A DNA stretch of 39,736 nt, from assembly GCF_004010195.1 (NCBI RefSeq), contig NC_057718.1:56368592-56408327 (forward strand). Direction: 5' to 3'. This document shows positions 4,063 through 37,559 of the stretch, piece after piece. The stretch is from Chiloscyllium plagiosum. Taxonomy: Eukaryota. The position numbers were made by a program, and so were the translations under genes. Positions within the stretch are counted from its first letter, which is position 1. Each line of letters opens with the position of its first letter. The notes beneath the pieces are model-generated. The model saw only the letters and a list, made by a program, of their open reading frames with translations, had not been told where the DNA came from and searched no databases.

Positions 4063-4206
<144 letters not shown>

Positions 4207-5151: not shown

Positions 5152-5165
5152 TTACACATATGTAT

Positions 5166-7504: not shown

Positions 7505-7699
7505 CATGATTTGGAGATGCCAGTGTTGGACTGGGGTGCACAAAGTTAAAAATCACACAACTCCAGGTTATATTCCAACAAGTTTATTTGGAAGCACTAG
7601 CTTTCAGAGCACTGCTCTTTCATCAGGTGGTTCTGGAGTATAAGATCGTAAGACACAATTACAAAGTTAAAAATCACACAATACCAGGTTATAGTCCAA
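7505..7699 (-). mobile_element. PLE-derived short element, family B, partial tandem arrangement
   Basis: Same sequence family as 26037-26472; 7539-7577 is repeated directly at 7661-7699; contains a hammerhead core. Confidence 0.8.
7595..7629 (-). ncRNA. Minimal type I hammerhead ribozyme motif (family B)
   Basis: Minus strand CAC-CTGATGA-A-AGAGC-AGT-GCTCT-GAAA-GC-TA-GTG: 3-bp stem I, 5-bp stem II, palindromic AGCT in place of stem III. Activity not shown. Confidence 0.75.
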
Positions 7700-8296
7700 T
7701 GGGATCAAACAGATCCACAGGAATCGGTGACAGTACTGATGAGGTGCTTATTGAACAATAACCTGCCCATCAGTGTTTGGTTTAGTTTTCAGTAGAACCA
7801 CTCCGTTGAATACAGCTTTGATGTAAACATAGACCAAAGTTGAATTCCAATGATCAGGTGAGAGTGACTTACCTTGACATCAAGGCAGCATTTGACTCTG
7901 AATCAAGGTGTGCTGGCAAATCTGAAGTCAGTGGAAGTCATGGGGAGTACCCTCCACTCGTAATCATACCAATCACCAAAACAAAATCACTTAGCAGCTC
8001 AAACCTTTTATGTCCATGTCTTAGGAATCACTTCTTTATGGCATGATTAATGGAACTGACTGAGTGAACGTTCCCACTTTAGTTTGTGATGACGGTCAAT
8101 GTGTCAGATGAAGATGATTAGGTGTAGGGCAGAATCCTGAGGAACACTTGCAACAGTACACTGGGGTTTCTAATAACTTATAATTACAACACAAAATATA
8201 TATCAGAGTATGTAAAATGTTCTGTAATGTATGCTAGTAGTTTCTTGGCATTTTGCATTTTAAATTATCCTTTCAAATTTTCTAAAACCTCTCCAG

Positions 8297-8572
8297 AAGT
8301 CCAAAGATGTGCAAGTTGGTGGATTGGCCATGCTAAATTGCCCTGTAGTATCCAGGGACATGCAGGTTAAATGGGGTTAGCTTTCATAGAATCTTATAGA
8401 ATCCCTACAGTGCAGAAAGAGGTAATTCACCCATTAGGTCCACACCAACCCTCTGAGGAGCATCCCATCCAGGACCCAACCTATCCTTGTAACCCCACCT
8501 AAACCGCATGTCCCTGGACTCTACAGGGCAATTTAGCATAACGAATCCACCTAACATACAAATCATTGGACT
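8297..8572. mobile_element. Two opposed HE1-type SINE fragments (+ about 8297-8380; - about 8385-8572)
   Basis: GTCCAAAGATGTGCA...GCTAAATTGCCC and its reverse complement; similar to 11066-11300 and 25378-25710. Confidence 0.8.
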
Positions 8573-8944
8573 TGAGAGGTTTTTGATAGTTTAGAAGAAT
8601 AGGGATGTGATGGAAAATGCTAGCATACAAAACAGAACATTTTCATATTTTTCCGGTTGTAATTTAGGTTGTTAGAAATCTTATACTGTTCCAAAGTCAC
8701 AGGCATTACTCTTGACTGACATCCAAGTGTGCATTTCAGAAGAGGACCCTGACATATATTTTAAAAACTTTTGACATTGACTTTTTTTTAAAAGTCGAGC
8801 ACTGTAAGGGGAAAAAATCTTTCGCCATATTCATTGTTAATGGATATGATAAGCTATAACAATTGTTTGCAAAAGGATATGAATAAAATCAGAATTAGAG
8901 TTAAAAAACACAATTAAGAAACAAAGTGCAGTAATTTCTTTGAG

Positions 8945-9306
8945 GCAAATGTGAGGGCTGCAGATGCTGGAAATCAGAGTCTAGATTAGAGTGGTGCTGG
9001 AAAAGCACAGCAGGTCAGGCAGCATCCGAGGAGCAGGAAAATTGACATTTCAGGGAAAAGTCCTTCATCAGGACTGACGGCCGGGCTTTTGCCGAAAACG
9101 TCGATTTTTCCTACTCCTCGGATGCTGTATGACCTGCTGTGCTTTTCCAGCATCATTCTAATCGAGACGGAGCAGGAAAATTGACATTTCAGGGAAAAGC
9201 CCTTCATCAGGACTGACGGCGGGCTTTTGCCGAAAACGTCGATTTTTCCTACTCCTCGGATGCTGTATGACCTGCTGTGCTTTTCCAGCATCATTCTAAT
9301 CGAGAC
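8945..9306 (-). mobile_element. PLE-derived fold-back element, family A, with internal 139-bp tandem duplication
   Basis: 34-nt tail (8945-8978), arm 8979-9072, inverted arm to 9168; 9030-9168 repeated at 9169-9306; flanked by AGTAATTTCTTTGAG at 8930-8944 and 9307-9321. Confidence 0.88.
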
Positions 9307-9493
9307 AGTAATTTCTTTGAGGTAAAAACAATGACTGCAGATGCTGGAAACCAGATTCTGGATCAGTGGTGCTGGAAGAGCACAGCAATTCAGGCAGCAG
9401 CCGACGAGCAGCAAAATCGACGTTTCGAGCAAAAGCCCTTCATCAGGAATAAAGGCAGAGAGCCTGAAGCGTGGAGAGATAAGCTAGAGGAGG

Positions 9494-10440
9494 GACAGAA
9501 CTGGCTAAAGACAGAGGGTGGTGGTGGAGGGTTCTTTTTCAGACTGGAGGCCTGTGACCAGTGGAGTGCCAAAAGGATCGGTGCTGCGTCCACTACTTTT
9601 CATCATTTATATAAATGATTTGAATGTGAGTATAAGAGGTATAGTTATTAGGTTTTGCAGATGACACCAAAATTGGAAGTGTCGTGGACAGCGAAGAAGG
9701 TTACCTTGGATTATAACAGGATCTTGATCAGATGGGTCAATGGGCTGAGAAGTGGCAGATGGAGTTTAATTCCGATAAATGTGAGGTGCTGCATTTTGGG
9801 AAAGCAAATCTTAGCAGGACTTATACACTTGATAGTAAGGTTCTAAGAAATGTTGCTGAACAAAGAGACTTTGGAGTGCAGGGTCATAGCTCCTTGAAAG
9901 TGGAGTCATAGGTAGATAGGATAGTGAAGAAGGCGTTTGGTATGCTTTCCTTCTTCGGTTAGAGTATTGAGTACAGGTGTTGGAGGTTATGTTGCAGCTG
10001 TACAGGACATTGGTTAGACTACTGTTGGAATATTGCGTGCAATTCTGGTTGTGAAACTTGAAAGAGTTCAGAAAAGATTTACAAGGATGTTGCCAGGGTT
10101 GGAGGATTTGAGCTATAGGGAGAGGCTGAACAGGCTGGGGCTGTTTTCCCTGGAGAGGGCATAGGTTTAGGGTGAGATGGGAAAGATATAAAAGAGACCT
10201 TAGGAGCAACTTTTTCACGCAGAGGGTGGTACCTGTATGGAATGAGCTGCCAGAGGATGTGGTGGAGGCTGGTACAATTGCAACATTTAAAAGGCACTTG
10301 GATGGGTATATGAATAGGAAGGGTTTGGAGGGATATGGGTTGGGTGCTGGCAGGTGGGACTCGATGTGTTGGGATATCTGGTCGGCATGGTTGGGTTGGA
10401 CTGAAGGCCCTGTTTCCGTGCTGTACATCTCTATGACTCT
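9494..10440 (+). mobile_element. CR1 LINE 3' fragment (RT C-terminal half and 3' tail) with internal deletions
   Basis: [13 protein letters not shown] and NFFTQRVV..WNELP motifs; ends CTCTATGACTCT. Confidence 0.93.
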
Positions 10441-10660
10441 AAATCATCCCCAACCAGCAAATATTGAGTGTTTGTTCAAGCTGTAAAAGTCTCAGCTATC
10501 AATAGATATCTAGAAATGTTAGTTGGAGCAAGTACTGACTGCAGATTACAGTCCTCGAGTGGTCAAGTGAAAGCGATTGCATTGCCACAAATTAAAGTTT
10601 GATGGCATAAAGGCAGCAAATGCAGCTTATCTCTCCACGCTTCAGGCTCTCTGCCTTTAT

Positions 10661-10692
10661 TCCTGATGAAGGGCTTTTGCCCGAAACGTCGA
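10661..10692 (+). ncRNA. Minimal type I hammerhead ribozyme motif (family A, best-preserved copy)
   Basis: TC-CTGATGA-A-GGGC-TTTT-GCCC-GAAA-C-GTC-GA; palindromic ACGT for stem III; predicted cleavage after C10690; stem I very short. Confidence 0.72.
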
Positions 10693-11065
10693 TTTTGCTG
10701 CTCGTCGGCTGCTGCCTGAATTGCTGTGCTCTTCCAGCACCACTGATCCAGAGTAATTTCTTTGAGCAGAGTACCTTTCCCTAAACATTACATCACAATA
10801 CAAAATGTGCAGGAAATGCTTTTTTAAAATCAGTGTTTTACAACTCATGATTACTAAATCTGAAAACAGAAAAAATAAAAACCATGTCATGTGTACAAGT
10901 ATTAGCATACAATGTCTGCAATGACAGGGCTTCCCAAATTGTGCGCAATATCCTCCACACAAAAATGGGTTTTGGATTGTGATTCAGAGGCACAAAGGAT
11001 CTTGAAATGATAGCAGAGGTGTCCCTGTAAATCAATTTTTGTCTATTGGTGGCCATGAAGACTCT

Positions 11066-11300
11066 TAGATTAGATTCCCTACAGTGCGGAATCAGGCCCT
11101 TCGGCCCAACAAGTCCACACCGACCCTCCGAAGAGTAACCCACCCAAACCCATTCCCCTACTAATGCACCTATCACTATGGGCAATTTAGCATAGCCAAT
11201 TCACTTGACCTGCACATCTTTGGACTGTGGGAGAAAACCGGAGCACCCAGAGGAAACCCACACAGACACGGGGAGAATGTGCAAATTCCATGCAGACAGT
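11066..11300 (-). mobile_element. HE1-type (V-SINE) SINE, 5' truncated
   Basis: Reverse complement of the core TTTGCACATTCTCCCC...GGTTTTCTCCCACAGTCCAAAGATGTGCAGG plus a CR1-like 3' tail. Confidence 0.88.
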
Positions 11301-12659
11301 CTTGTATCACTGCCACAAAATAAAGCCTTTGAAAAAGCACGTGCTAGTTTTTATTTCTTGTAAACTTTTTTTCCTGATCAACTTCCTCAACTTACTAGTG
11401 AATGGTTAATTGACAGAAACCCATATCCTGGATATTGAGATAGATGCAACAAATTTGCCATCTCTTCTTTCATTTCAGTGGCCGAAGCTCATGCAAATCG
11501 GGGCAAATTTGAGGTGTGCACAGGCAGTTTTTAAAAATTAAATATATACACATGCTTGTTAGATATTAAATGAGTCATAACGTTTTCACAGGATGGAAAA
11601 CTTCCACAACAATATCACACTAATGTTTTCTGTTGTATACTCTAAACCTATGGGGTGACGATCATAAAATCTGGTTGTGTGTGTAACCTGCAGTTATTTA
11701 TATTAAATGTCCTGTAGATATAGAAGTGGAATTTCAAGATTTTATGCAGCTAACAATTATAAAGTTATAAAGAGAATTAGAAATAGTAATGTAAGAGTCC
11801 AATTTACAATGTGACTTGTACTATATATATATTACTTTAAGCTTTTCATTGTTGAACATTTGAAACAACAATGACTCTGGAAGCTTCTATGTAAAGTCCC
11901 TGATCCCCCTCAAAAGCTCTCATAGCCTCCAAAGTCTTCACACAAAGTCTGAGTCATTAAAATAGGCTCACACCAGGAAAAAGTCTTAGAAGCTCTGCAC
12001 GATGATGTGAAGGGAGTAATAGCCCATTGTGCAAAGGATGTCACCTGGAAAGGAAACTGAAATGGTGGTCAATCTACATTGCATTTGTTATAATTATAAC
12101 CAACTGACTGAACAGTACATTTCTGAACCATTGATATGTGTACACTTTGAAAACATATCCAAGTTATGTTTATATTTTAGGTATTACACTTAAGCAGTTT
12201 GAGATATTTAAATTTTAAAGTCACATTGCTGCATTTAAAAGCATTTAAGGAATTATACTAAGTGATCTCATTAGTGCTGATGGCTTTAAAATTAACGCTG
12301 GTTTCTGAAGAACATCATTATGCCATTCTTCCAGCACCATTGTTCCAAATTAGCATTTCTACTTGGCACCATACTCTATCAAGTATTGAGTGAGATGCAG
12401 CTTCTAAAATTCATTAAAAATTTCAACCACTGTCAGAGCTAAATTGTATAATTGCTGCACTTATGAACCATAAATGGGTGTTTTGAAAAGCTTTAATAAA
12501 GTAACAACGCTTGCATCAATTTGATTCCAGACAGATGGATCTATTAGAGCATTTAATACAGAAATAGTCAACGAAGCCAATACTTTCAAATATAAATATA
12601 TTTTAATATCAATGAAAAGAAAATTAAAATGTGATTCTGTTTTTCCATACATTAAAGGT

Positions 12660-13845
12660 TCCAAACTGGCTTACACATTGAAGGCAAAGGGTGATGGTAG
12701 AACATTGTTTTTGTACTTGGAAGTCTGTGACCAGTGGTGTCCACAGGGATTGGTGTGGGATCCATATTGTTTGATTTGTACATTAACAATCTGGATGTGA
12801 ATTTAGGGGGTTTAATTAGTAAGTCTGCAAATGACACAAAAAGAGGGGGTGTTGCTGATAGTGAGGAGAATGGTCTCAGGCTACAGTGTGAAATTGATCA
12901 GCTGGTAAATTAGGTAGAACAATGGCAGATGAAATTTAACTAGGAGAAAGTGAGGACTGCAGATGCTGGGGAACAGAGCTTAAAAATGTGTTGCTGGAAA
13001 AGCGCAGCAGGTCAGGCAGCATCAAAGGAGAAGGAGAATCAACGTTTCAGGCATAAGTTTCCTGAAGAAGGGCTTATGCCCGAAACATCGATTCTCCTCT
13101 GATGCTGCCTGACCTGCTGCGCTTTTCCAGCAACACACTTTTAAGCTCAGATGAAATTTAATCCCAATAAATGTGAGGGGATGCATTTTGGAAAGTTTAA
13201 GAAGGGAAGGATATACAAAATATGATAGGTTTCTAGGAAGTACTGAGGAATAAAGGGACCTTGGTGTTAAAATCCATTAATCCCTGAAAGTACAGTTGAC
13301 ATGGTGGTGAAGAAGGCATATGGGATGTTTGCCTTCACAGCAAGCGTGAAGAATATAGGACCAAGAAAGCCTTGTTACAACTTTATAAAGCATTCCACAG
13401 ATGAAATACAGTGTGCAGTTCTGGATACCACACTATCAGAAGAACATTGAAGACAGTACTGAGGAGATTCACCAGGATATTGCCTGGGGTGAAAAGTCTT
13501 AGTTATAAGGAGAGACTGGATGGGCTGGATTTGCTTTTCATGAAGCAGAGGATGTTGAGGAGGAATTTGACTGACATTTCCAAAATTATAAGAGTAGACA
13601 GTGAGAATCTAACCACAGATGGGCTTAAGTTTATGATGAGGAGTAAGTGGCTTCGAGGAAATTTGAGAAAAAAAACTTTCCACCCAGAGAGAGGTAGAGG
13701 TATGAAACATGCTGCCTGAGAGGGTGGAGGAGGCAGGTATTGTTACAAAATCTAAGAAGAATCTGGATGCATATTGAAAATGCCAGCAGCATAGTGGACT
13801 ATGGACCAAGTGCAGGTAAATGGGATTAGTGTAGTTTGATGTTTG
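12660..13845 (+). mobile_element. Degraded CR1 LINE 3' half, interrupted by a PLE fold-back element
   Basis: PQG-region, SKSANDTK (FADD-like) and RRFTRILPG..LSYKERL motifs; CR1-type 3' UTR. Confidence 0.88.
12940..13147 (-). mobile_element. PLE-derived fold-back element, family A
   Basis: 14-bp TSD CAGATGAAATTTAA (12926-12939, 13148-13161); 36-nt tail; inverted arms; + strand core CTGAAGA(13062)-AGGGCTTATGCCC-GAAA-CATC. Confidence 0.9.
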
Positions 13846-13859
13846 TTGGATGGTATACT

Positions 13860-13943
13860 GTGACGCTGGAAAGCACAGCAGGTCAGGCAACATCCGAGGA
13901 GCAGGAGAGTCGACATTTCGGGCATAAGCCCTTCATCGGGAAT
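13860..13943 (-). mobile_element. PLE family A single-arm fragment
   Basis: GCTGGAAAGCACAGCAGGTCAGGCA...TTTCGGGCATAAGCCCTTCATCGGG; hammerhead core mutated to CCGATGA. Confidence 0.82.
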
Positions 13944-14690
13944 GAGTCAAAGAGTTATAGATTGTCCTGTACGGAAAAAAACTCTTTGGTCCATCTACCA
14001 ATATCCTTTATTAATTTAGTGTCAGTTGCCAGCATTTTGTCCCTAATTCTTTTAACCCTTTCCTATTCATGTACTCAGCAAGATGCCTTTTAAATGTTGT
14101 AATTGTACTAGTCTCTACCACTTCCTCTGGCAGTTCTTTCCATACCCGTACCACCCTCTGTGTGAAAACGTTGCCGCTGAGGTCATAGAGAGGTACAGCA
14201 CGGAAACAGACCCTTCGGTCCAACTCGCCCATGCCGACCAGATTTCCCAACCCAATCTAGTCGCACCTGCCACCACCCAGCCCTTATCCCTCCAAACCCT
14301 TCCTGTTCACATACCCATCCAGGTGTCTTTTAAATGTTGCAATTGTACTAGCCTCCACCATTTCCTCTGGCAGCTCTTTCCATACACTACCATCCTCTGC
14401 GTGAAAAAGTTGCCCCTTAGGTCTCTTTTATATCTTCCCCATCTCACCTGAAACCAATGTCCTCTAGTTCTGGACTCCCCCACCTCAAGGAAGAGACTTT
14501 GTCTATTTATCCTATCCATGCCCCTCATGATTTTATAAACCTCTATAAGGTCACCCCTCAGCCTCCGACGCTCCAGCGAAAGCAGGCCCAGCCTATTCAA
14601 CCTCTCCCTGTAGCTCAAATGCTCCAACCTTGGCAACATCCTTGTAAATCTTTTCTGAACCCTTTCAAGTTTCACAACATCCTTCCCCAT
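13944..14690 (-). mobile_element. Two stacked CR1 3' ends (about 13944-14175 and 14181-14690)
   Basis: ORF 14307-14708 reads KDVVKLERVQKRFTRMLP...RRRLRGDLIEVYKIM; FTQRVVRVWKELPEEVV; same family as 9494-10440. Confidence 0.92.
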
Positions 14691-16283
14691 GAATATTTTC
14701 AGCTCCAAGAAAGTTTCTATTCAAAGTAACTTGGAAGTTCACATGAAAACACTTTGGTTAGAGTGACTGGCTCCCTCGAAAAGATGCGTGATGTACCTCC
14801 TAGGAGAAACTTTTCTCCCTTCTGAACAATAACCTTGAATCTTCTTTTCTGAAGTCAAAACTAAACTGTGGTTTTTCAGCCTTTTGTCAGCAATATAAAC
14901 ACTCAATCCATTAATGCCAGAAGGATTCTCCAAGGAATCTGACTGCAGTCACATGTCTTCTTGGAATTGATGCATTTTGGACACTGTTCAATTGACTTTT
15001 TAAATTGTTTAAAGAAATGACCTTCGCAGATCTGACCCACATCCTTCTGCCTCTGTTTTGAAATCCAGAACTCAAATTATTGATGTATAAAATATATCTT
15101 TTTGGAGCTTGGGTGGGGTAAAAGAAAACAAAGATACTGCAGTCACCATTGCTGTTTCCATTTCATTCTTTGCTAGTCCATTGGGTTACTTGGATTTACT
15201 GCCTCTATCAAAAAATGCTTTCCTGTTTTAAGTACAATTTAGCTGACTACTTGTATGCAAGATAAGTACTTTCATAAACAGAAAACATATGCAAACATGG
15301 GGCTTTCTTACCCTGTCACTCTCAAAGTACATCACATTGACCATTTTGTATTTTATAGTGTCATCTGCTGGTCTTTTTCCCAATGCTGTAAATTGCAGAT
15401 CTAAAAATAATTAATGAAGTTAGCCAAATCTATAAAAATAGATGCTAAAATGACTGAATTTTGAGCAAAGTAACCATTGTGGAGTTACATTTGACTATGG
15501 CTGATTACCAGGTAGGTTATCGAAAGACTAAAGTAATTGAGAAATAATTCAAGCTCTATTATCTTCATCTGATTTGATACACATTCCTCAATTTACATGA
15601 TCACAGTAGTTTTCAGGAATGCCCAAATGGCAAGCAGGCGTTAGAGGGTTACACTTGTAATTGATTGCAAGGATCTGCAACAGGATACAGTTGGATTTGC
15701 ATTCTGTAACAAAGCATTCATGCACTTTTTCATGTATAAATTATGTTACCAGACTATATTGATACATTATTTTATCAGTGTTGGCTCTTAATAATTTTTA
15801 CATAATTAACCTCTCCAATAGAAAACCACAAGGAACCTCTCCCCTTTTACAAGTTTCCCTTCTCACCTTAAACCTACGCCCTCTGCTTTTGGACTTATTA
15901 CAGTCTCAGTATTCCAACGCAGAAGTGTGATTATGTCTCTATCATTTTCAATTCTTTGGCAATAATCTTAATAAATTATTATACCCATATCAATGCTAAA
16001 TAGTCCCAGAATGAAATCCTATTGTGCCTTCCATCACCATAACGTGCTCAAGCACCCTACAGTTACTTCAACTTGTATCTAATTTTCAGACCAACTCAAA
16101 GACACAAAGTGGAGAAAACAATTTTGCAATTATAAGGTTCTTTCCATTTGATATTTAAAATTAGATTCAGTATCTAAATCTACTGGAAGTATATGAATTT
16201 TTTTTAACAAGCTTAGTTGAATCTTTGTTTGCTATAACCATTTTTAAATTCCAAGGAAGACCTGTAACTGCAAGTACTACTCC

Positions 16284-16289
16284 TTTATT
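16284..16289 (-). terminator. MTIF2: Candidate MTIF2 polyadenylation signal (AATAAA); alternative ATTAAA at 16845-16850
   Basis: Hexamer on the minus strand downstream of the stop codon; no transcript evidence. Confidence 0.3.
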
Positions 16290-16888
16290 TTGCATACTGC
16301 TAGTTATAAATGGAGATTCAATTGCAGTTGAGTCTTGTGAAAATCTTGTTCTTCAATACCATTGGGATTCTGAGCCAAATACTTTATGTTGAATACTGCC
16401 AATGGCCAACAACATTCCTTCAATGGAAAAGCACAAAGGAGACAATTACATCATGTACATTACCAGATATATCATTGGTATCTAGATTCATATTTAGCCT
16501 CTTTTTGTTATGTTTCATTGCTAATTAATGTTTAACCTGGCACCAGGGAGCAAAAATGCACACAACATTATATGAAGAACATTTCAAATTGTGGCTTTAA
16601 AACTCTCCAGGCCGTAGCAAGACTTTGCAATATTCATACCAGACAGTAACTTCAAGGATCTTGTTACATTCAAAATGGTGTCTGCGTGGATCCACTGAAT
16701 TAACCTTCACCATCCTTCAAAGTAGTTCCCAATGAAAAACTTAGACACATTTCATGTTGGCCAGTTTTCTAAACAAAAAGCTGAATACATCATTATCAAA
16801 TCTTCCATTTGGTCATTTCACTGGTCTTTATATTAACAGTGCAATTTAATTCAATTTAAAAATTCTTAGGCTCTTGTAGTAATCAAGT

Positions 16889-17058
16889 TTAAAATCCTGG
16901 ATCCCAAGATATTTTTTGCTGAATTTGTTTTTCTTCATAACAAATAATTTCATCACCAAGCTTAAAATTAAGGTCTTTATCCAAGCTGAGGCCACATTCC
17001 ATCCCTGTCTTCACAACTGGGACATCGTCCTTCAGATGTTTGAGAGAGGTGAGAAAAC
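16889..17058 (-). CDS. MTIF2: Mitochondrial translation initiation factor IF-2, last coding exon
   Basis: After ttcAG: (G)[55 protein letters not shown] then TAA; IF2 C-terminal domain. Confidence 0.96.
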
Positions 17059-17450: not shown

Positions 17451-18386
17451 AACCTACTCATATCTTGTTTCAGCCTTACCCCATACACCTTGATCCCTTT
17501 AGCCCTGAGAACAATATCTATCTCCTTCTTACAAACATTTAATATTTTGGTCTCAACTGCTTTCTGTGGCAGAGGACTCCACAAGGCTTACCACACCCTG
17601 GGTAAAGAAGTTTCTCTTCACCAGAGTCCTAAATGGCTTACCTCATATCCTTAGACCATGATCCCTGGTTCTGGACTCTCCAGTCATCAGGAACATCCTT
17701 CTTGCATTTACCCTGCCTAAACCCTGTTAGAATTTTATATGAGATCGCCCCACCCTCTTCATATGTTAGTCCTGCTATTCCAGGAATCAGACTGGTAAAC
17801 TTTTGATGTACCCTTTCCGTAGCTAGACTATTCTTCCTCAGGTGAGGAGACTAAAACTGAACACAATACTCCAGATGTGCTCTCACCAAGGCTTTATTAC
17901 AATTGTAATAAGACATCCCTGCATTCTCTTGCTATGAAGACCAACATTACATTTCTCTTCTTCACCACCTGCTACAACCTATATGCTTACCCTAAGCAAC
18001 AGGTGTACAAGGACATCCAGGTCACATTGCAACTTCCCCTTTTCTAATCTATCATCATTCAGATACTTTTTTTCTACCAAAGTGGGTATCCTCACATTTA
18101 TCCACATTTTCCTTCATCTGCCTTATATTTTCCCACTCACAGCTTGTCGAAATCACATTAAAGCTTCTCTGCATTCTCCTCACCATTCACCCTCCCACGC
18201 AGCTTTGTATCACCTGCAAACTTAAAGCTATTACATTTAATTCCCTCATCTAAATCATTAAACATACTGCGACTAGCTGGGATCTAAGCATTGATCCCTG
18301 TGGTTTGCTACTCGTCACTAACTGCCACTCAGAAAATTACCTGTTTATTCCGACTCTTTGTTCTGTCTGCTGGCCAGTTCTCTATC

Positions 18387-18516
18387 ATTCCTGATGAGGA
18401 GCTTATGCTTGAAACATTGACTTTCTTGCTCTCAGATGCTGCCTGATCGGCTGTGCTTTTCCAGCACCACACATTTTGACTCTGATCTCCAGCATCTGCA
18501 GTCCTCACTTTCTCCT
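18387..18516 (+). mobile_element. PLE family A single-arm element with hammerhead core
   Basis: 11-bp TSD AGTTCTCTATC (18376-18386, 18517-18527); CTGATGA(18391)-GGAGCTTATGCTT-GAAA-CATT. Confidence 0.88.
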
Positions 18517-19069
18517 AGTTCTCTATCCTTGGTAGTGCACAACGCCAAACTCATACTCTTTAATTTTACATGCGAAACCTTATCAAAAGCTTGGCGCCAT
18601 CTTCTTCATAGCTTCCACTGCAGTACCTCTATGGCCACACATCATTCCTGGTCAACAAAGCAGTCAAACCTGCCCTATCCCTACCACCAGACTTTGTGAA
18701 AAGAGAGTTTCTTCTGATAATTTTTTTAAAAATTTCACTATTTGTTTAAATAAAAATTTACATTTTATAGATCATTCTCGAGTTGTAGTAAGTTACTGAA
18801 TGATGTTCACAATGCTTTGCCTCCTGTTGGAATTATTGCAGGCGGATTGGGAGTAATTTGTTAAATAAGGGAATTTCATAGAAGGTATATAAATACAATT
18901 GCACAACAACTTGATAAAGTCCCTTAAGAGACTCATAATAGGCAAAATATACATTAACCTGGTTTTCAAAGAAAGAAAATTGTTGCTTCTGAAAGAGCAT
19001 GGTTGAGTCTATAGTACAGGAGCACTTTTGTAGGTTATATACACAGAACTGCACAAGAGGTAAACTTGC

Positions 19070-25710: not shown

Positions 25711-26036
25711 CTAAATCCAAAATGCATCTTAGTTTACCTTTCAAAGGAACATAGACAATATTATATTCTTAAAAGGAAATGAACTATTTCTGCCAGAATT
25801 ACATGCTCTTCTGTTTACTAGAGATTGTTTCAAAGAATAAATGTTACATTGTTTGAGTAACTGGAAAATAATTATAATTTATCCCCTTACTCCAAATACC
25901 TTTACTAGCTTTGGCCTAATTTAAAATGCTACTGAGCAATATTCAAAATGGAAACAGCCAGAATTTTCAAAAATGTTGTTATGCTATTTTTTCCAAGTCT
26001 GTTTCTGTGCGTCCATAAACAGCTGGTTTCATAGTA

Positions 26037-26472
26037 TGATTTGGAGATGCCAGTGTTGGACTGGGCTGTAAAAAGTTAAAAATCACACAACACCAGGTAT
26101 AGTCCAACAGGTTTATTTGGAAGCATTAGCTTTCGGAGTGCTGCTCCTTCATCAGGAGGTTGTGGAGTATAAGATCATTAGACACAGAATTTATAGCAAA
26201 AGTTTAAATGTAACTTTTAAAAAAGCTTTGCGATTTATGTATTAAAGAACTGAAACCAACATGGTCATTCTAAAAGATGAGAGACTTAACAAACAATCCA
26301 GGTCTTTTTCAAAGTATAATTTCAGTTACATCACACTGTAAACTTTTGCTATATATTCTATGTCTTACGATCTTATACTTCACAACCACCTTATGACGGA
26401 GCAGCACTCCGAAAGCTAGTACTCCAAAAAAAACCTGTTGGACCGTAACCTGGTGTTGTGTGATTTTTAACT
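26037..26472 (-). mobile_element. PLE-derived inverted-repeat element, family B
   Basis: 14-bp TSD CTGGTTTCATAGTA (26023-26036, 26473-26486); 37-nt tail; arms about 26074-26206 and 26338-26472; hammerhead cores at 26124-26158 (-) and 26387-26421 (+, mutated CTTATGA). Confidence 0.9.
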
Positions 26473-26689
26473 CTGGTTTCATAGTAACAACTTGAACAAA
26501 GACTTTGTTGTGAATCATCACTTTTGTCCTTTTTGACAGTTCCGCGCTAAAGAAATCCAACATGGGAATGTAACCACTTTGAACAAGTGGTTGAAAAACT
26601 GGGCAGAATAATGGCAGATAGAATTTAATCCCAGTAAGTGTGATGTGATGCATTTTGGATGTCCAATAAGGAAAAATCAAAAACAACAT

Positions 26690-27305
26690 GACACCCTGTC
26701 ATAATTCAACAGGTTTATTTGAAAGCACAAGCTTTTGGAGCCTCACTCTTTCTTCAGGTGTTAGTGAAGAGGATATATCAGACACAAAATTCATAAGTTA
26801 AAGATCAAACGGTCATACAACTGATGCAAATATAACATACTAACCTAGATGAATGTTAAGTCTTTAATAGGTTAGAATGGAGATGCAGGTTCCTATTGAC
26901 ATATGTAAATCCCAAAATTTCTTTCAAGTCACTGTTCTGAGATAACTTAAAACTTTATCAGCATAAAAGAGGTGACATCTAGGTCAGACAATGCATTTTA
27001 GGTGTGAGGCCTTATTGAGAGTCGACTGTGTCCTAACCTGAAGTCAGACTGGTTTTATTTCCAAAGTAGGAATTCATAAAATGCCACATTGACTGCCTGG
27101 CTACAAATTGTGTGCTTTTTGAACAAAATAGAATTTATCTGCAAACTATACTTCAAATATGCACCTTATAGATTTGTATTTATATAAAAGTGTGTGTGTG
27201 CGCGCGCGCGCGCGGGTGTGAGAGAGAGAGAGTGAGAGAGAGAGATAGTGAGAATGAATGAGTGAGATACTGTGTGTGCGTGCTTTAGAGAGTGTGTATG
27301 TGAGG
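26690..27305 (-). mobile_element. Older PLE 3' region related to family B, ending in a microsatellite
   Basis: CAACAGGTTTATTTGAAAGCACAAGC matches family B; degenerate core CAC-CTGAAGA-AAGAGTGAGGCTCC-AAAAGCTT-GTG on the minus strand (26726-26760). Confidence 0.6.
27190..27300. repeat. Compound (TG)n(CG)n(GA)n microsatellite
   Basis: GTGTGTGTGTGCGCGCGCGCGCGCG...GAGAGAGAG seen directly. Confidence 0.95.
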
Positions 27306-27314
27306 TACTAAATT

Positions 27315-29520: not shown

Positions 29521-29529
29521 CCCTGAGAA

Positions 29530-29700
29530 AATGGTACAGGCAAGTACTCTTGCAAGATTTAAGAAGCATCTGGATAAATACTTAAAATGCCAGTGCATAG
29601 TTGGCTATGGACCAAGTGCAGGTAAATGGGGTTAATGTGTTTATTGGTCATCATAGACATGTTGGGCTGAAGGGCCTGTTTTCTGTGCTGTATGACTCCA
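29530..29700 (+). mobile_element. CR1 3' end fragment
   Basis: TTTAAGAAGCATCTGGAT...GGGCTGAAGGGCCTGTTTTCTGTGCTGTATGACTC. Confidence 0.85.
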
Positions 29701-29771
29701 TCTTTGGTAGATGTGATAAAATTACAACATTGAAACTGCAGTGAATGAAGGATACCATTAAAATAAATTAC

Positions 29772-29911
29772 CTTAAGGGCTGATATATTTATGGACTGAA
29801 CATCACCACCATATTCTTCACAAATCACATCATAAGCTAACAACTCCTTTTTTACTTTTTCATGATTTGATTCTGGTTTGTCACATTTGTTTACTGCAAG
29901 AATTATTGGAA
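29772..29911 (-). CDS. MTIF2: MTIF2 coding exon (140 nt; GTPase G4 and G5 motifs)
   Basis: (V)[50 protein letters not shown] bounded. Confidence 0.96.
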
Positions 29912-30750
29912 CTGCAATGAGAACAGTTAAAATTAGATGGAAATAAATATGTGGTACAATAGTAAAAGAGATTTGAAAACATTTTCATTATCAGCTATTT
30001 TTGATAATCAATCTCTATAGCTCTTTAGTCATTTACATTCATGAAAGGAAGTAAGCTTTTTAAAGCTTGGTTTGGCTAACTGCAGTAGAATTGCCACCAG
30101 ATCAGGACTCAGGTGATTGAAACTTTAAAGTTGCACTTACACTAGATCTGAAGCAGATTGCATGCAATGCTATACAAAAGAATCAGCTGATCTTTACTGT
30201 GTTTCAAGAGAGGACGTGGCGATTTTAATTCATTTGTTAAAAGGTACTTCTAAGATTTTGTGATTTTCAAAAGAGTGAATAAACTGCCAAATGCTACCCT
30301 TCTCCAATATTTCTGCTGCACAATGATGTAACGTTTGCAGTATCAGCAACCAAGAGGTTTTGAGTTAAAATACCATCATGATAAACTGTGAAACTGAAAG
30401 CATTATTTAGGTGATAATTCATAGGCTGGCATCAGACAACAATTACCTGCAATGTAATTGGGAAGGAAAACATTAATGTGGCTCAGGGAAGGAAACCTGT
30501 TATGCCTATCTGTGCTGGCATTTGATTCTGGTTCTAGACAACATGTTGATTGTTTATACCCTTTGATATGCCAAGCAAGACTCTTAATTACACAAAAGAA
30601 ACTCTAAAAGTAACCACACTACCTTCATGACAATATAAGGAAATGATATTAGCCACTTCCTGCGACTGAAGGAAAAGAAACATGAAGCATCCACTGACAA
30701 GTGACACACACTAGTTTCTGAAATCTGCACAACTCTAGATTTGAACTTAC

Positions 30751-30927
30751 CATTAGCATTTTTAGCATGTTGAATTGATTCTACGGTTTGCTCCATTACT
30801 CCATCATCTGCAGCAACCACTAGTATCACAATGTCCGTCACATTAGCACCACGGGCTCTCATTGCGGAAAAGGCAGCATGGCCTGGTGTATCTAGAAAGG
30901 TTATCTTTTCACCAGATGGTAAGTGCA
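30751..30927 (-). CDS. MTIF2: MTIF2 coding exon (177 nt; GTPase G3 motif); most 5' exon visible
   Basis: [58 protein letters not shown]; the G1 exon (GHVDHGKT) was not seen in the window. Confidence 0.97.
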
Positions 30928-31199
30928 CTGTGTAATCAAATAAAACATTTCAGTTGAGAAATGCAAACAAAAAATGGTTTGTTATCAGGAAGACACTGGT
31001 AGACTATTGCAGTAAAGAAGTGGATACTATAGAAATTAGAAGAACAAACATTCATGCTTTAGTTAAACTCCAGAATAAGTGTGGCATCTTTCAGAGAGTT
31101 TTATTGTACAAAAGGTCTAAATATTTTGGTATGCTGCATATTCTTTAAATGCACAATCATATAAGAAATTTTGGTTAAAATTTACTGAAGTACACACAC

Positions 31200-32830
31200 A
31201 AAAATTCCAGACAAATCCATCCAATTACTGCCTCATCTTGATCATTAGCAAAGTTCTGAAAGGGGTCATTGACAGTGGCATCAAGTGGCACTTAGTCAGC
31301 AATAACCTACTCATTGATGTTCATTTTGGGTTCTGCCAGTGCCACTCAGCTCCTGACCCCATTACAGCCAATGGGAATCAGTTAACAAGTCTTTACTGGA
31401 TGGAAGCATATTTAGCTCATAGGAAGATGTTTGTGGTTGTTAAATGTGACCTTCAACTATTCTGTCAATAATCAAATATGTCTTGTACACAAAAACAGGA
31501 CAATTCCAACTTGAGTGATTACCTCCCCATCAGTCTAGTCTCAATCATTCATAAAGTGATACTCAGTGTCATCAACAGTGCTCTCAAGCACCACTTACTT
31601 AACAATAACTTGCTCATAAAAGCTCAGTTTGGGTTTGACCAGGATACTAAGCTCCTGACTTCCTTACAGCCTTGGTCCAACTTGGACAAAAGAGTTGAAT
31701 TCAAGAGGTGAGAGCCATTGTTTTTGACATCAAGGCCACATGACTGCACAATGTTCAGCAGATGCTGAAGTAATCCATGCTCAAATACAGCAAGAACTGT
31801 ACAATATCCAGGCTTGGGATGACAAGTGATAACTAATATGTACAACTCACAGATACCAGACAATGATCATTTACAACAAGAGAGAATCTAACTATCGTCC
31901 CTTGATATTTATTAATATCACTGTCACTGAATCCCCACTATCGACATCCTGGAGGTTACCAATGAGCAGAAACTGAACTGGTCTGGTCATATAAGTACTT
32001 AGCTACAAAGTCCTAAGTTATCCACCATCCACAAGACACAAGTCAGGAGTGATGAAATGCTTCCCACTTGCCTGGATGAGTACAGTTCCAACCAACACTC
32101 AAGAAGCTTGACACTATCCAAGACAAAGCAACTTGCTTAATTGGCATCACATCTTACAAACATTTTGCCCCTTCACCACTGACATCCAGTATCTGCAGTG
32201 TGTGCTATCTTCAAGATGCACTGCAGAAATTCACCAAGGCTCCTTTGACAGCCCCTTCAAAACGCATGACCATTACCATCTAGAATGACAAGGGCAGCAG
32301 ATACATGGGAATATTACCTGCATATTCCCCTCCAAGTGCTCACTACCCAGATTTGTAAATTTTTCTCTGCCCTTTCAGAGTCACTGGGTCAAAATCCTGG
32401 AACTATCTCCCTAAAAGCATTGTGGGTATAACTATACACAATGGACTGCTGCTGTTCAAGAAGGTAGTTCACCATCTTGCTTGATTTTGACCCCATCCAC
32501 TACTGAAACACTTACTCCCTCTAGCACTGATGCATAGTGGTAGAAGTGTGCATCATCTACAAGATGCACTGCAGCAACTTCTTTAACAGCACCTTCCAAA
32601 CCTTTGAGCTCTACCACTGCTCAGAAAAACAAGATCATCAGTTGTGAGGGACTATTTGTAAGTACCCCTTCAAGCCACAGACCACGGTGACTTGGAACTA
32701 TATCCATTCACTGTTACTGCATCAACATCCTGGAATTCCCTTCCTAACATCACTGTAGAGCAATTACACATCAAATATAGCAGTTCAGGAAGATGGTCTT
32801 TCCAATTAGAGAAGGACAATATATGTTAGC
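31200..32830 (+). mobile_element. Cluster of old CR1-clade LINE fragments (at least two overlapping copies)
   Basis: Two DYLPISL..QFGF-type segments (31215-31360, 31495-31740) and two similar 3' segments containing CAAGATGCACTGCAG. Confidence 0.7.
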
Positions 32831-33150
32831 CTACACAGTGACACTTTTATGTCAGGAAAGAGAAAGAATACTTTCCAAAAAGAAGGATGTATGCCAGTAA
32901 TGACTTGTTTGGAAAATTATTTTCAAGAGTTTGATTTGAGAGAATGTAACTTAATTCATGGCTCAAACTACACACACACCAAAAAAACTGTTTTTTTTTG
33001 TTAAGCAGAACTTCTTCATTATGGAATCTCACAGGGACCATTTGGAATGTAACAACAACTTGCTATTATCAGTATTTTTAATGCGATGGAATGTTTTTAG
33101 GGATTTCACAGTGGTGTTAAAAAACAAAAACTGACACCAATTCACTACAA

Positions 33151-33450
33151 GATTAGAGTGGTGCTTGAAAAGCACAGCAGGTCAGGCAGCATCTGAGGAG
33201 CAGGAATGTCGATGTTTTGGAATTGGGGTAAGGTGGGGGGAGGGGAAATGAGCAAACTGGTGAAGTCCACATTGATGCCCTGGGGTTGAAGTGTTCCGAG
33301 GTGGAAGATGAGGCGTTCTTCCTCCAGGTGTCAGCTGGTGAGAGAGTGGCGATGGAGGAGGCGCAGGACCTGCATGTCCTTGGCAGAGTGGGAGGGGGAG
33401 TTGAAATGTTTGGCCACAGGGCGGTGGGGTTGATTGGTGAGTGACCTGGA
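33151..33450 (-). mobile_element. PLE fragment: GIY-YIG endonuclease C-terminal remnant joined to the family A terminus
   Basis: A minus frame not in the ORF track reads HRPVAKHFNSPSHSAKDMQVL...*HLEEERLIFHLGTLQPQGINVDF; 33151-33218 matches the family A arm with the hammerhead core deleted. Confidence 0.82.
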
Positions 33451-33479
33451 GACATTTTGGGGCAGATGAATTGGTTTTA

Positions 33480-34500
33480 AGAAAGCATTAGGATAAAAAG
33501 AGGAAGAGACGCTTAAGGTGAAGGAATTCCATTGTTAGAGGCATTGTGAAGGGATGGCTACAAATTATGGAAATGTTAAAACCAGCGATGCTCAGACCAA
33601 AATTGAAGGGGCACAAATATCTTGGAGGGGGTTAAAGAGATAGGAAGTAGCAAGGTCATCGAAAGATTTACAAACATGGTTCAGAAATTTAACTCTGGGG
33701 CATTGCTTAACCTAAAGCAATTAAGTAAACAGGTGCAGGAATAATGGGTGAAAGGCCTTTTGTGCAAATCAGGATATGGACAGAATTTTGGATGAGCTTA
33801 CACTCATGGAAGTTGAGAATCCAGCCAGGGCTGCATTGGAATAGTCCAGAGATAACAAGGCACTAAGGAGAATTTTAGCAACAGGTGAACTGAAACAGGG
33901 ATGGAAATGGGCAATGTTAGGGAGATGGAAGTAGATGGCCTTGGTGAAAGCACAGATTTATGGTTCGAAGCTCATCATGGGGTTAAATATAATAAACAAG
34001 GATTGCAAAAAAATGTCGAGTTACCAGTAGAAAGTGGAGTTAACAGCTAGGGAACAGACTGCCCTGTGTAGAATGTCTGAGAGAAAATTCCTGTTCATCC
34101 AGTGGCAGATGTTATACAAACAATTTTTACAACTTAGAAACAACACAGGGATCAAGGGATGTGGTGATCCAATAGAGATAGGAATTGTCAATATACTTGG
34201 GGAACCGGACTTGTTTTTGGATGATGTTAAAATTAAAGAATGGGTCAAGGCCAATTTCGTCCGTCATACTGCAGAACAGCACGTGAATGTGAAATAAGAG
34301 GGACCCAAGGATAGACCTGTGGGGGAGCCATAGATAACTGTATGGGAACAGAAAGAGAAGTATAGCAAGCAATTTTCACACTGCAACTGAATTGGTAAAA
34401 TTGGAACCAGGTAAGCATAAGTTTACTTAACTGGGTTTCAAAGGAGAAGAGTGTTATGGTCACCTCTGTGCAAAGCTGATGGCAGGTTGGGGAGAATGGA
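33480..34500 (-). mobile_element. Degraded L2-like LINE RT fragment
   Basis: PHRSILGSLLF (degenerate PQGSILGPLLF) near 34290-34325 and L2-like downstream sequence; interrupted by other DNA. Confidence 0.55.
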
Positions 34501-34512
34501 AAGTAATTTACC

Positions 34513-35110
34513 TGTCACAAAGCTAGTCCTTTTTTTCTAAAAACTGTTCCTTGGCTCAAGGATACTCTGTCCTTGATTTTTTTAGGAGAGGTAATAAACC
34601 AGGCCGGGCTCTGATTAGTCTGGTTTGGTTCAGAAATTAAAGGGTATTGAGAGACCTTTTTGTTTATATGTAAACAGATGAGACTTCAGGGGCTAAAGTG
34701 GTCATATTTTAGAAGTGACCTGTATAAAGAAAGTGGCCTGATCAGCTCTCTAGCTGAGCTGAGTAGTTTAGTTCAGATCAGAATTGGTTGGGAGTTCAAC
34801 CATGAGTATGTGGAAACTATCTCTTCTGCCCTTCTAAATTCAACCTGTAAGCATCTGACCCTTTTTTGTACTGTGTTTTAAAGGGTGTTTGCTTATTAGG
34901 ACTGGGTTCTGTAGGGGTTCTTTATTCTGTTCTTCGTGTTTCATTGTGTAGTTTTGTGAATAACATTTTTATCTGTTTTAAACCTGGCAATCAACCTCAC
35001 TAACTTAATCCAGGTAATTTTCACTGTACCCTTAACAAAACAATTTACAAAGTTATGGTCTGGGCCGCCTGCTTAAGAATGTTTTGAGTGATGTGGCCTA
35101 GTCCATAACA
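34513..35110 (+). mobile_element. 5' LTR of a Gypsy-type retrotransposon
   Basis: TGT...ACA termini (5' boundary less certain), directly followed by a PBS and gag. Confidence 0.7.
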
Positions 35111-35113
35111 GAC

Positions 35114-35132
35114 TGGGGGCTCTTTGTGGGAT
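35114..35132 (+). promoter_or_regulatory. Primer-binding site, tRNA-Pro type (degenerate)
   Basis: TGGGGGCTCTTTGTGGGAT versus the tRNA-Pro PBS TGGGGGCTCGTCCGGGAT; 3 nt after the LTR end. Confidence 0.75.
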
Positions 35133-35210
35133 TTTAAACAGCGAGTGGTAGGTGCTAGTGTCTTTATTTTGGGTGTTGGTTTGGTTGGGTAGACAAAGCT
35201 TGGAATAGTA

Positions 35211-36575
35211 ATGCCTCCTTCAGTTGCCAGAAGTTTTACAAAAAGTGAACAAGACCCAAGCTGCAGGAATTAGCAGAGAAGCTGGAATTGGAACTACCTG
35301 CTTCTGTGAGGTAAGGAGAGATAATTACAGCAGTAGCTCAGCATTTAAACTTGCTGGAGAAATCATCAGAATCTATAAAGATAGCCAGAATTCAATTGCA
35401 AATGAAGCAGCTTGAGTTAGAGACAAGAGATAAGGAAAGGGCAGCAGAAATGGAACAATTTGAGTTACAATTAAAAGCAGAAGAGAGGGAAAAAGAAAGA
35501 GCAGCAGAACAGAGAGAAAGAGAGAGGGCAGCAGAAGAGAGGGAAAAATAGAGACCTTTTGAACTTCAAAAACTGACACTTAAAAAGGAATGTCAGCTTA
35601 AAAGGCTAGAGATAAAGGCTGAGGGTAGGCTTAGTGAGGAAGAGAGTGAGGATGAGCAAGCCCCTGGTAATCAGAAGCCTAGTGAGAAACTGTTTAAGTA
35701 TGTTCAAACATTGCCTAAATTTGATGAGAAGGATGTGGAAGCCTGTTTCATCTCATTTGAAAAGGTGGCTAAACAAATGCAGTAGCCAGTGGCAATGTGG
35801 GTTTTGTTGATCCAAACAAAACTTGTCGGTGGGGCTGGTGAGGTATTCGCATCACTATCAGAGGAGGAATCTGGGGAGTATGAGGAGGTGAAAAAAGCCA
35901 TTTTAAGTGCATATGAGCTTGCACCAGAAACCTATAGATAATGTTTCAGGAATCTAAGAATGGATCCTGGTTAAGCCGAGATTGGGTTTGAAAGGATCAG
36001 ACAGTAATTTCGAAAGATGGATAAGAGCTTTAAAAATCAAGCAAACCTATGATGCCTTTAGAGAAGTGATTGTTCTGGAGGAATTCAAAAAATCACTGCC
36101 TGAAGTAGAATGAACTCATATGGAAGAACAAGGTTAGCAGTTGAAGTGGCTGATGATTATAAGCTAGTTCCTAAAACTCGGTTTGGCTTCCAGAATCAAT
36201 TTCAGTCCATGAGAGGTAGAAATTGGGGCAAAGACAAATCCTCACGTGGAAAGAGAAAGGTAGATCTCAGCAAAGATCATAAGGATAACTTACCAAAGGG
36301 TAAAAAAGAAACCAGTGAGGGGGACGAAGAAGTTAAAAAGCTCTGGTGCTTTCATTGTAATAATGTGGGTCACACGAAATCACAGTGTTGATGGGCTAGG
36401 GGAAAGCCAGATGCAGGAAACCAGACAAGCCTGGAAGTGTTATTGGACTAGTAACAAAAAACACAAGGGAAGTTAGACAACTGCCTCAGAGTGTACAAGC
36501 TGTTCAGAGGTTGGATAAGCAGGAAGTGCCAGATCTGTTTAAAAAATATACATGCAAGGGTAAAGTTTATTCACA
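35211..36575 (+). pseudogene. Disrupted Gypsy gag: coiled coil, capsid/SCAN-like region, CCHC zinc knuckle; pol absent
   Basis: LPKFDEKDVEACFISFEKVAKQM, VKKAILSAYELAPE and CFHCNNVGHTKSQC (36347-36388); several stops and frameshifts. Confidence 0.85.
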
Positions 36576-37341
36576 TAGACTCAAATTTTCCAGTGTCCTC
36601 TTGCATGCACATTTTGACTGCTCTCCAGACTTGAGATCATCACTCTGTTTCCACACTTTTTCTTTTTGATTACTACTTTTCTCTTTACCTCTCCTGACAC
36701 TCCCTGATATCAATGCTTCTCCATTTAAATTCTCTTCTCTCAGATGCTCTGCTCTTCCAATTCCGTATCCAGTTTTTTGATACTGCTTGATATTCCAACT
36801 CTCTTGCTGCATCCCAGGCTTCACTCCCTCTTAGATAAGCTCTATTTCCTGAGTCCATGTTCTCTTATTCTCCTGTAATCTCTGCTTGCATACATCTTCC
36901 TAAACTAAACTTATGGTCAACCCTTTGATCCTGCAATTGCACTATACCAATTTTATCAAACACAGAAAACGATATCTCTGATCACATTCTTACATCATTC
37001 TCCATTCACAATCTCCTGCCACACCTTGACAATACTTCCTTCTGTACTTGTCTATGGAGAAAGAAAAGCTCCCAATTCACTTACAATTGCACTTTCAAAT
37101 CCCAAACATCTAGTCTTTGGCCCTCTGTTCAGTTCAACATTTATGCAGCTGATTGTTTATTCAATATCATCACCTTCACATTTGTTGTCTTAGTTCCTGT
37201 AAAAATCATTTTCTCTCATGTTTGCCATGCCACTGATAAAGTCCGCATCTCTATTTCCTCTAGTCTGAAAGATATGACTTGAAATGGTCTGGCAGATTTG
37301 TCTTAGCCAATCAACACCAAGCTGGATCTAAGTTAGCTCCT

Positions 37342-37468
37342 AGGCGAAAGTGAGTACTTCAGATGCTGTAGATTAGAGTCAAGAGTGTGGTGCTGGAAAA
37401 GCACAGCAGATCAGACAGCATCCGATGAGCAGGTAAATCGACATTTCGGGCAAAAGCCCTTCATCAGG
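37342..37468 (-). mobile_element. PLE family A single-arm element with hammerhead core
   Basis: 12-bp TSD AAGTT(A/G)GCTCCT (37330-37341, 37469-37480); minus core CTGATGA-A-GGGCTTTTGCCC-GAAA-TGTC. Confidence 0.88.
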
Positions 37469-37559
37469 AAGTTGGCTCCTGTTGTTGTCTACCAAAACCA
37501 TCTAATCTATCGTTGTCAACAATACCTGGATTCAGGGTTGCATAATTCTGTCACTGATC

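Follow-up and report, generated by a model that had tools for sequence, protein, structure and literature searches.

Hammerhead motifs in the window

We analysed a window of 39,736 nt from the Chiloscyllium plagiosum assembly (3.56 Gb), in which a first-pass annotation had noted about ten short insertions with the hammerhead ribozyme consensus and had ascribed them to Penelope-like elements (PLEs). Comparison of the window with itself revealed that every motif site falls in one of two repeat lineages, which we call A and B; A includes an older subfamily, C. The carriers are very probably the terminal 85-270 bases of two endonuclease-bearing PLE lineages, present as pseudo-long terminal repeat (pseudo-LTR) stubs and 5′-truncated tails. 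Each carries a minimal type I hammerhead motif in sense orientation, predicted, by comparison with published PLE hammerheads, to self-cleave only when two copies pair via a 4-nt palindromic helix III.

The pattern CTGANGA-N4-30-GAAA matched the window 14 times, against 4.55 ± 1.97 matches (largest 12) in 100 shuffles. Six of the sites lie on the minus strand (7602-7626, 9048-9071, 9187-9210, 9423-9446, 26131-26155 and 37444-37467) and three on the plus strand (10663-10686, 13062-13085 and 18391-18414). The matches at 2808, 5199, 13459, 17814 and 29432 failed the stem II test and were rejected. Degenerate copies are located around 13940 (minus strand, CCGAUGA) and around 26767 (minus strand, GAAA changed to AAAA), and the minus-strand copy at 33157-33220 is without the CUGAUGA box. 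A strict descriptor, requiring a perfect stem II of at least 4 bp, GAAA, palindromic 15.2/16.2 and UH, found 8 sites in the window, compared with a mean of 0.03 in 200 block shuffles. Four strict sites are fully intact (10663, 9446, 26155 and 7626), against 0.005 expected on both strands in block shuffles. The excess over chance arises because two repeat lineages were copied, not from ten separate origins; the number of independent origins is two or three, not ten. When 189,968 bases of genomic loci were scanned for other hammerhead types, 74 of 75 strict matches were of the A or B type, in a sample biased by its selection with A and B queries.

The catalytic boxes C3-A9 and G12-A14, the pair A15.1/U16.1 and an H17 other than G are present in the majority sequences of A, B and subfamily C. 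All three also have one extra A after A9, followed by the pair G10.1-C11.1 (A-U in the B copy at 7626). Stem II comprises 4-5 bp in the A and B majority sequences. Positions 15.2/16.2 form a loop-less palindrome, with no helix III hairpin: ACGU in lineage A and AGCU in lineage B. In many lineage A copies the palindrome has been lost via CpG decay. H17 is C in lineage A and A in lineage B, which makes the triplets GUC and CUA, respectively. The architectures found in the window are GGGC/GCCC with ACGU-C, and GGAG/CUCC with AGCU-A. The distance from the core start to the short one of two 3′ ends is 84-92 nt in both lineages. Otherwise the A and B tails cannot be aligned; the block that aligns best locally is exactly the core.

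Stem II pair 10.2/11.2 was compared in 123 lineage A copies. It is G-C in 77, A-U in 37 and G.U in 6, with three other combinations and not a single A.C. Lineage A stem II appears to have gone from GGGC/GCCC to GAGC/GCUC in one compensated change, which would have proceeded via the wobble intermediate and was inherited by many copies. Minimal hammerheads of PLEs have features beyond those of the search descriptor: a base is added after A9, G10.1 pairs with C11.1, and helix III is palindromic (PMC4209133). Judged by their sequence, the motifs described here match every published sequence feature of the PLE minimal hammerheads. The picture drawn by the first-pass annotation thus largely stands: nine of the ten sites keep both boxes where it had placed them, the tenth, near 26387 on the plus strand, having a broken core (CUUAUGA); the catalytic consensus is present in its minimal PLE form; and two dissimilar families share one architecture.

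Connection of the repeats with PLE reading frames

Endonuclease-bearing PLEs are defined by a reverse transcriptase (RT) with a GIY-YIG endonuclease after it. We searched the genome with three seeds and took 30 loci for each, from at least 978, at least 3,212 and at least 3,344 candidates, of which 40 were scored per seed. In the genomic loci a reading frame of the same sense ends about 220-240 nt upstream of the lineage A hammerhead. This frame matched Pfam GIY-YIG with 22.6 bits, exactly at the cut-off, in locus L032; the frame of locus L031 had no Pfam match. Longer relatives of the lineage A frame in the protein collection contain both RVT_1 and GIY-YIG (42.4 and 32.4 bits, respectively, in protein P0006). 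Among named proteins, those most closely related to it are uncharacterised ones from Chiloscyllium punctatum (81% identity) and Rhincodon typus (64%).

A tblastn search with P0006 detected RT and endonuclease segments, collinear and on the same strand, upstream of the hammerhead in loci of both lineages. The lineage A loci were L019 (residues 450-816), L024, L025, L009 and L001, the lineage B loci L064 (residues 375-560, 583-651 and 699-898) and L053. Lineage B frames alone gave no Pfam match (0 of 5); between the endonuclease frames of lineages B and A there is homology (E 1e-12, 33% identity). In both lineages the hammerhead lies in the terminal region of the PLE, in sense with the RT-endonuclease frame and 220-540 nt downstream of the stop codon.

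All PLE frames in the loci examined are broken or partly N, and several loci are N upstream. Runs of N begin at varying offsets just upstream of the lineage A tails in L014, L018, L021, L024, L025 and L031; in L031, N covers about 1.8 kb where the RT region is expected. The window itself contains an N run of 501 bases (1153-1653).

Structure of the insertions

The copies found in the window are listed in Table 1.

Table 1. Lineage A and B copies in the window
Feature	Position	Strand	Details
Lineage B terminal module, 5′-truncated, long 'tail' end	7503-7657	−	Hammerhead ~7598-7626, layout CUGAUGA-A-AGAG..CUCU-GAAA-GCU-A
40-nt fragment of the lineage B 3′ region, ending at the short 3′ site	7660-7699	−	Directly upstream of the 7503-7657 copy, partial tandem
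Older lineage A head-to-head insertion with internal tandem duplication	8943-9305	−	Decayed cores 9048-9071 and 9187-9210
Young lineage A arm, starting 48 nt upstream of the core, with the long tail	9320-9494	−	Intact hammerhead ~9419-9446 with G.U at pair 10.2/11.2; 99.4% identity to the L031 copy
Young lineage A arm, short 3′ end	10624-10752	+	Fully canonical minimal hammerhead 10663-10690; GUC triplet, predicted cut after 10690
Palindromic head-to-head lineage A insertion	12940-13148		Left arm reversed, long tail; right arm forward, short end; hammerhead 13062-13089, palindrome lost via CpG decay; 13-bp target-site duplication AGATGAAATTTAA at 12927-12939 and 13149-13161
Short lineage A stub	13865-13943	−	Mutated core CCGAUGA
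130-nt stub of lineage A subfamily C, long tail	18387-18516	+	Starts 4 nt before the core; hammerhead 18391-18418, stem II GAGC/GCUU; 11-bp duplication AGTTCTCTATC at 18376-18386 and 18517-18527
Head-to-head lineage B insertion	26036-26472		Reverse arm 26036-26206, long tail, intact hammerhead ~26127-26155; forward arm 26207-26472, short end, broken core near 26388; 13-bp duplication at 26023-26035 and 26473-26485
Old diverged lineage B copy	26673-27006	−	66-74% identity to reference; GAAA changed to AAAA
Lineage A copy keeping the end of the GIY-YIG coding region (33216-33452)	33157-33452	−	Internal deletion fuses coding region to tail; CUGAUGA box gone
128-nt lineage A stub, long tail	37342-37469	−	Starts 3 nt before the core; hammerhead 37440-37467, palindrome decayed to AUGU; 11-bp duplication (1 mismatch) at 37331-37341 and 37470-37480

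Clean target-site duplications of 11-13 bp surround four of the window insertions, two simple stubs and two head-to-head copies. Two alternative 3′ ends, 36-38 nt apart, are used in both lineages. Among 153 lineage A arms 79 had the long end, 69 the short end and 5 were 3′-truncated; the corresponding numbers for the 61 lineage B arms were 35, 23 and 3. Head-to-head pairs followed a strict rule. In lineage A, 33 of 36 pairs combined a long with a short arm, the other three contained a truncated arm, and neither long+long nor short+short pairs occurred. In lineage B, four of five pairs were long+short.

At the 5′ side, lineage B copies extend from 0 to more than 1,498 nt, with 3′ ends in two fixed classes. 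Of 17 core-covering lineage B copies, none has its start in the 12 nt upstream of the core, and in 10 the upstream sequence reaches beyond 100 nt. Of 37 unselected core-covering lineage A copies, 23 have their start 0-5 nt upstream of the core; the start is 6-12 nt upstream in 4 and 1-5 nt into the core in 3. Homology extends further upstream in only 4 of the 29 copies sampled from subfamily C; by eye, this sample comprises about 13 head-to-head copies and about 12 simple stubs. In summary, lineage A copies are mostly stubs of terminal-repeat size, and the lineage B copies of the window are plain 5′ truncations.

According to the available part of PMC11167929, reverse transcription of the anole PLE PAc starts in vitro at two adjacent internal sites, and both DNA strands are cleaved and extended. 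The long+short pairing rule and the clustered 5′ ends of lineage A fit these two RT start sites and the double-strand priming. Inspection by eye revealed a direct repeat, TTCCAGCA(C/T)C, common to the sequence before the short 3′ end and the inside of the long tail of lineage A (e.g. 10727-10752 and 9320-9360), so the two presumed RT start sites may resemble each other. A stretch preceding the lineage B short end has its complement within the tail (CUGGUGUUG / CAACACCGG; by eye).

The 12-mer GTAATTTCTTTG occurs three times in exact form and direct orientation, against 0.64 expected. Two copies (8931-8942 and 9308-9319) flank the older insertion at 8943-9305; the third (10753-10764) comes right after the young arm at 10624-10752. 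The second and third copies bracket a composite, in which about 1.13 kb of unrelated DNA separates a reversed young A arm with long tail from a forward one with short end. The arrangement goes back either to the use, two times, of one staggered-cut site or to a single complex event. PLEs have been reported to insert next to older copies, at least in the part of PMC6765202 available, and the GTAATTTCTTTG arrangement fits this.

The DNA between the young inverted arms (9495-10623) contains a 5′-truncated RT fragment of a CR1/L2-like long interspersed element (about 9510-10445, by eye from the translation) and about 180 nt more. It looks like foreign sequence carried between PLE terminal arms, as has been described for rotifer PLEs (PMC3846280).

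Two further observations were made on single insertions. At 9030-9306 a 138-bp unit with a decayed hammerhead is duplicated in tandem (2.0 copies, 98% matches), which places same-strand cores 139 nt apart; it is the sole tandem hammerhead arrangement of the window. The palindromic insertion folds, at 13003-13121, as a long hairpin, and four Rfam microRNA families matched it below threshold (best mir-1791, 36.2 bits versus a gathering score of 75, E 5e-4). Such stubs could pass for microRNA precursors.

Abundance

The window contains 12 lineage A and 5 lineage B arms in 39,235 non-N bases. They correspond to about 10-12 insertion events, approximately one per 3.3-3.9 kb. A second estimate was obtained from a flank sample of 180,639 bases lying at least 400 nt from selected copies, a sample that clustering may enrich. 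A arms numbered 57 in it, covering 2.4% of bases, and B terminal modules 16, covering 0.8%. Rough extrapolation, to be read as an order of magnitude only, gives 1.1 million A and 0.3 million B arms. The terminal modules thus make up, roughly, a few per cent of the DNA of this genome.

The insertions had been described in the first-pass annotation as very abundant, non-autonomous retroelements of PLE origin, with one element per about 4 kb. The measured density agrees with this, and the PLE origin is supported by the RT and GIY-YIG frame that precedes the tails in genomic copies. The term non-autonomous holds in part: the copies are PLE-derived and abundant, but they do not form a system apart, lineage B copies being 5′ truncations and lineage A copies stubs of a PLE that exists with its reading frame.

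RNA reads

A raw poly(A)-primed single-cell RNA run with the same species label (X19) placed 5,517 reads on window positions 7400-10900 at 90% likeness. The unique flanks in this stretch had zero depth, therefore the reads stem from other copies. Coverage of the lineage A arms was about equal on the two strands. On the lineage B copy it was about 3:1 toward the B-sense orientation, as inferred from library geometry. In 167 reads a non-templated T run abuts position 7574, within the minus-strand copy 7503-7657. Poly(A) was added about 13 nt after an AAUAAA that closely follows the lineage B hammerhead; the distance of the addition site from the predicted cut site, which it follows, is about 28 nt. 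In vivo, polyadenylation therefore takes place at a site provided by lineage B tails, upstream of the element's own 3′ ends.

Assessment of the ribozyme interpretation

The observations can be accommodated in the following model, in part modelled on PAc. Copies would be made by target-primed reverse transcription from two sites close to the RNA's 3′ end, on both cut DNA strands. Most lineage A cDNAs would end just upstream of the hammerhead, at the point where the pseudo-LTR or the template RNA would begin. The ribozyme would act only on multimeric or paired master transcripts, and the genomic stubs would be dead copies decaying neutrally.

Several results weigh against an active ribozyme or are neutral. 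No Rfam hammerhead family (type I, II, III, HH9 or HH10) matched the window at the gathering score, and none of the 12 Rfam matches at E up to 10 belonged to a hammerhead family. The miss is expected, because the motif has no helix III hairpin; it is still a failed test. Helix I is weak. It consists of 2 bp and one isolated pair in lineage A and of 3 bp, a mismatch and 2 bp in lineage B, and most A stubs begin only 0-5 nt before the core. Stem II forms in the fold of the lineage A window copy. Minimum free energy folds of single copies (one A and one B copy of the window) tie part of the core into alternative pairings, and cofolding did not yield the predicted 4-bp intermolecular helix, the dimer not being the predicted minimum; we give these folds no weight either way.

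The first-pass annotation had named excess conservation of the core beforehand as a check, and this excess was not found. Within the lineages the core is conserved no better than the rest, conservation being flat save at CpG and subfamily-diagnostic sites; a flat profile is expected within lineages because the copies are dead. Between the A and C majority sequences 1 of 13 core positions, 3 of 8 stem II positions and 18 of 75 other positions differ (Fisher p = 0.17, not significant). The score of the A-versus-B core alignment (25, shuffle mean 19.8, maximum 29) is not significant alone.

At the coarse resolution of X19 there was no excess of molecule starts or ends anywhere in the 3.5-kb stretch. 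Reads run through the predicted lineage B cut site to the downstream poly(A) site, therefore uncleaved RNA exists. Published PLE minimal hammerheads show poor in vitro cleavage, also in dimeric form (PMC4209133). For PAc, the available text of PMC11167929 states that hammerhead mutants left in vitro insertion unaffected and that no RNA-seq reads ended at the cut site.

Alternatively, catalysis could be vestigial and the motif could have been kept in master elements for a role other than cleavage. This role might be to delimit the pseudo-LTR or template RNA on the 5′ side, whether as an RT stop, as a strand-transfer or protein-binding signal, or as part of a promoter. We consider such a role doubtful, if a serious possibility. 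It is favoured by the clustering of lineage A starts at the core and by the rarity of upstream homology in subfamily C, both described above, and also by the absence of any A start at the predicted cut site, about 35 nt further on. The minimal helix I, the low in vitro activity (PMC4209133) and, as far as the accessible part of PMC11167929 goes, the dispensability of cleavage for PAc insertion agree with it. However, lineage B has the full catalytic consensus without any clustering of 5′ ends at the core, therefore a boundary role is not general. Moreover, what was kept is precisely the catalytic set of nucleotides, with the cleavable NUH triplet and the palindrome that a dimer needs among them.

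The abundance of lineage A, with 57 arms in the flank sample and about a million by extrapolation, its sharp 5′ boundary and its subfamily structure would also suit another origin: the 85-130-nt units could be a self-propagating non-autonomous family, similar to short interspersed elements (SINEs) or retrozymes, for which transcription would start from the family's own copies and PLE enzymes would provide mobilisation in trans, instead of truncations that are dead on arrival. A preprint, in the part available, derives animal non-LTR retrozymes from PLE pseudo-LTRs, and includes its one chondrichthyan genome (10.64898/2026.07.22.740005). We nevertheless regard this origin as unlikely. The stubs begin with the hammerhead core and no tRNA-like head was found (ARAGORN, 0 tRNA genes in the window), so that a tRNA-derived SINE was rejected. 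Assignment to the non-LTR retrozymes was likewise rejected, the window containing no tandem array save the single 2-copy 138-bp duplication. The same subfamilies were found joined to a 3′ untranslated region and reading frame. Reads from A arms are about equal on both strands and the unique flanks are silent, which looks like passive transcription within other transcripts. Finally, the long+short pairs within one duplication show that the PLE machinery builds each insertion.

All window sites belong to two lineages, hence to few independent events, and within the lineages the core is not detectably better conserved than its flanks. Both facts would be compatible with hammerhead-like boxes that are chance features of two repeat consensus sequences, multiplied by transposition. 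We hold this to be highly improbable. The full descriptor is expected 0.005 times per shuffled window, yet it is present in both unrelated tails, in sense and at equal distance from the 3′ end. The boxes alone do not require the extra base after A9, the G10.1-C11.1 pair or the palindromic helix III (PMC4209133), and the compensated stem II change through a wobble intermediate also argues against chance. The interpretation as PLE termini with minimal hammerheads of predicted dimer dependence remains the one we prefer.

There is, in our opinion, only a small likelihood for a more far-reaching proposal, in which the hammerhead is mainly a 5′-terminal module of the copied RNA unit rather than a processing ribozyme. 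With lineage A cDNAs ending 0-5 nt upstream of the core, the 95-130-nt unit from hammerhead to tail would then be a self-contained retrotransposition cassette, present in about a million arms and able to carry foreign sequence between inverted arms. Since the poly(A) site of lineage B follows the cut site by about 28 nt, cleavage there would remove the poly(A) tail, and this could let an RNA change between the roles of messenger and template.

Comparison with known systems

The kind of element found here is already described. Our analysis adds two or three lineages from a cartilaginous fish, and no new mechanism is shown. A literature search found no paper that links hammerhead ribozyme and Penelope with the shark as an animal; the sole co-occurrence uses 'shark' for the shape of a motif. 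The shark lineages A and B are not named in the main text of PMC4209133. The two lineages are nevertheless useful: they are an abundant natural material for testing PLE hammerhead function, and the strict long+short rule and the clustering of A 5′ ends at the core are quantitative signatures of insertion. They also affect repeat annotation, because palindromic stubs mimic microRNA hairpins.

The closest counterparts are the minimal hammerheads of metazoan PLEs (Cervera and de la Peña 2014, PMC4209133). In these, too, the topology is type I, the boxes are CUGANGA and GAAA, a single unpaired base separates A9 from G10.1, and G10.1 pairs with C11.1. They also lack a helix III hairpin, have a palindromic 15.2/16.2 and a short helix I. 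They are located in terminal repeats, in sense with the reading frame, and form consensus families within one genome. Most are solitary motifs of truncated elements, and some lie head to head, 100-700 bp apart. Differences concern stem II, which has 4-5 bp here versus 7-8 bp in Schistosoma and 6 bp in D. virilis, and copy number, which by our rough extrapolation is far higher than the 4,000-9,000 motifs in coelacanth and Xenopus. Cleavage of PLE minimal hammerheads as dimers is attributed to Lünse et al. 2017 in the accessible part of PMC6765202.

The insertions resemble those of endonuclease-bearing PLEs (Arkhipova et al. 2013, PMC3846280; for PAc, the available part of PMC11167929) in their direct or inverted terminal repeats within one target-site duplication. 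An optional tail on one of two inverted arms is a further similarity (30-40 bp in PMC3846280, 36-38 nt here), as are the capture of unrelated sequence between arms and the location of new insertions beside old ones. In contrast to these PLEs, the terminal unit is very short (about 95-130 nt), that of lineage A starting almost at the hammerhead core. In PAc, as given in the accessible text of PMC11167929, the hammerhead overlaps the start of the reading frame, whereas here it is found 220-540 nt past the stop codon.

Similarities extend to the animal non-LTR retrozymes, which, in the portions available of Cervera and de la Peña 2020 (PMC7229834) and Li et al. 2026, are non-coding units with a type I hammerhead, related to PLE pseudo-LTRs and occurring as dispersed monomers. 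PLE-related retrozymes are reported from one chondrichthyan genome, of a species that the main text of the preprint does not name (10.64898/2026.07.22.740005). Retrozymes are defined, in the same portions of these sources, by tandem repeats giving circular RNAs, whereas the copies described here are solitary or head to head.

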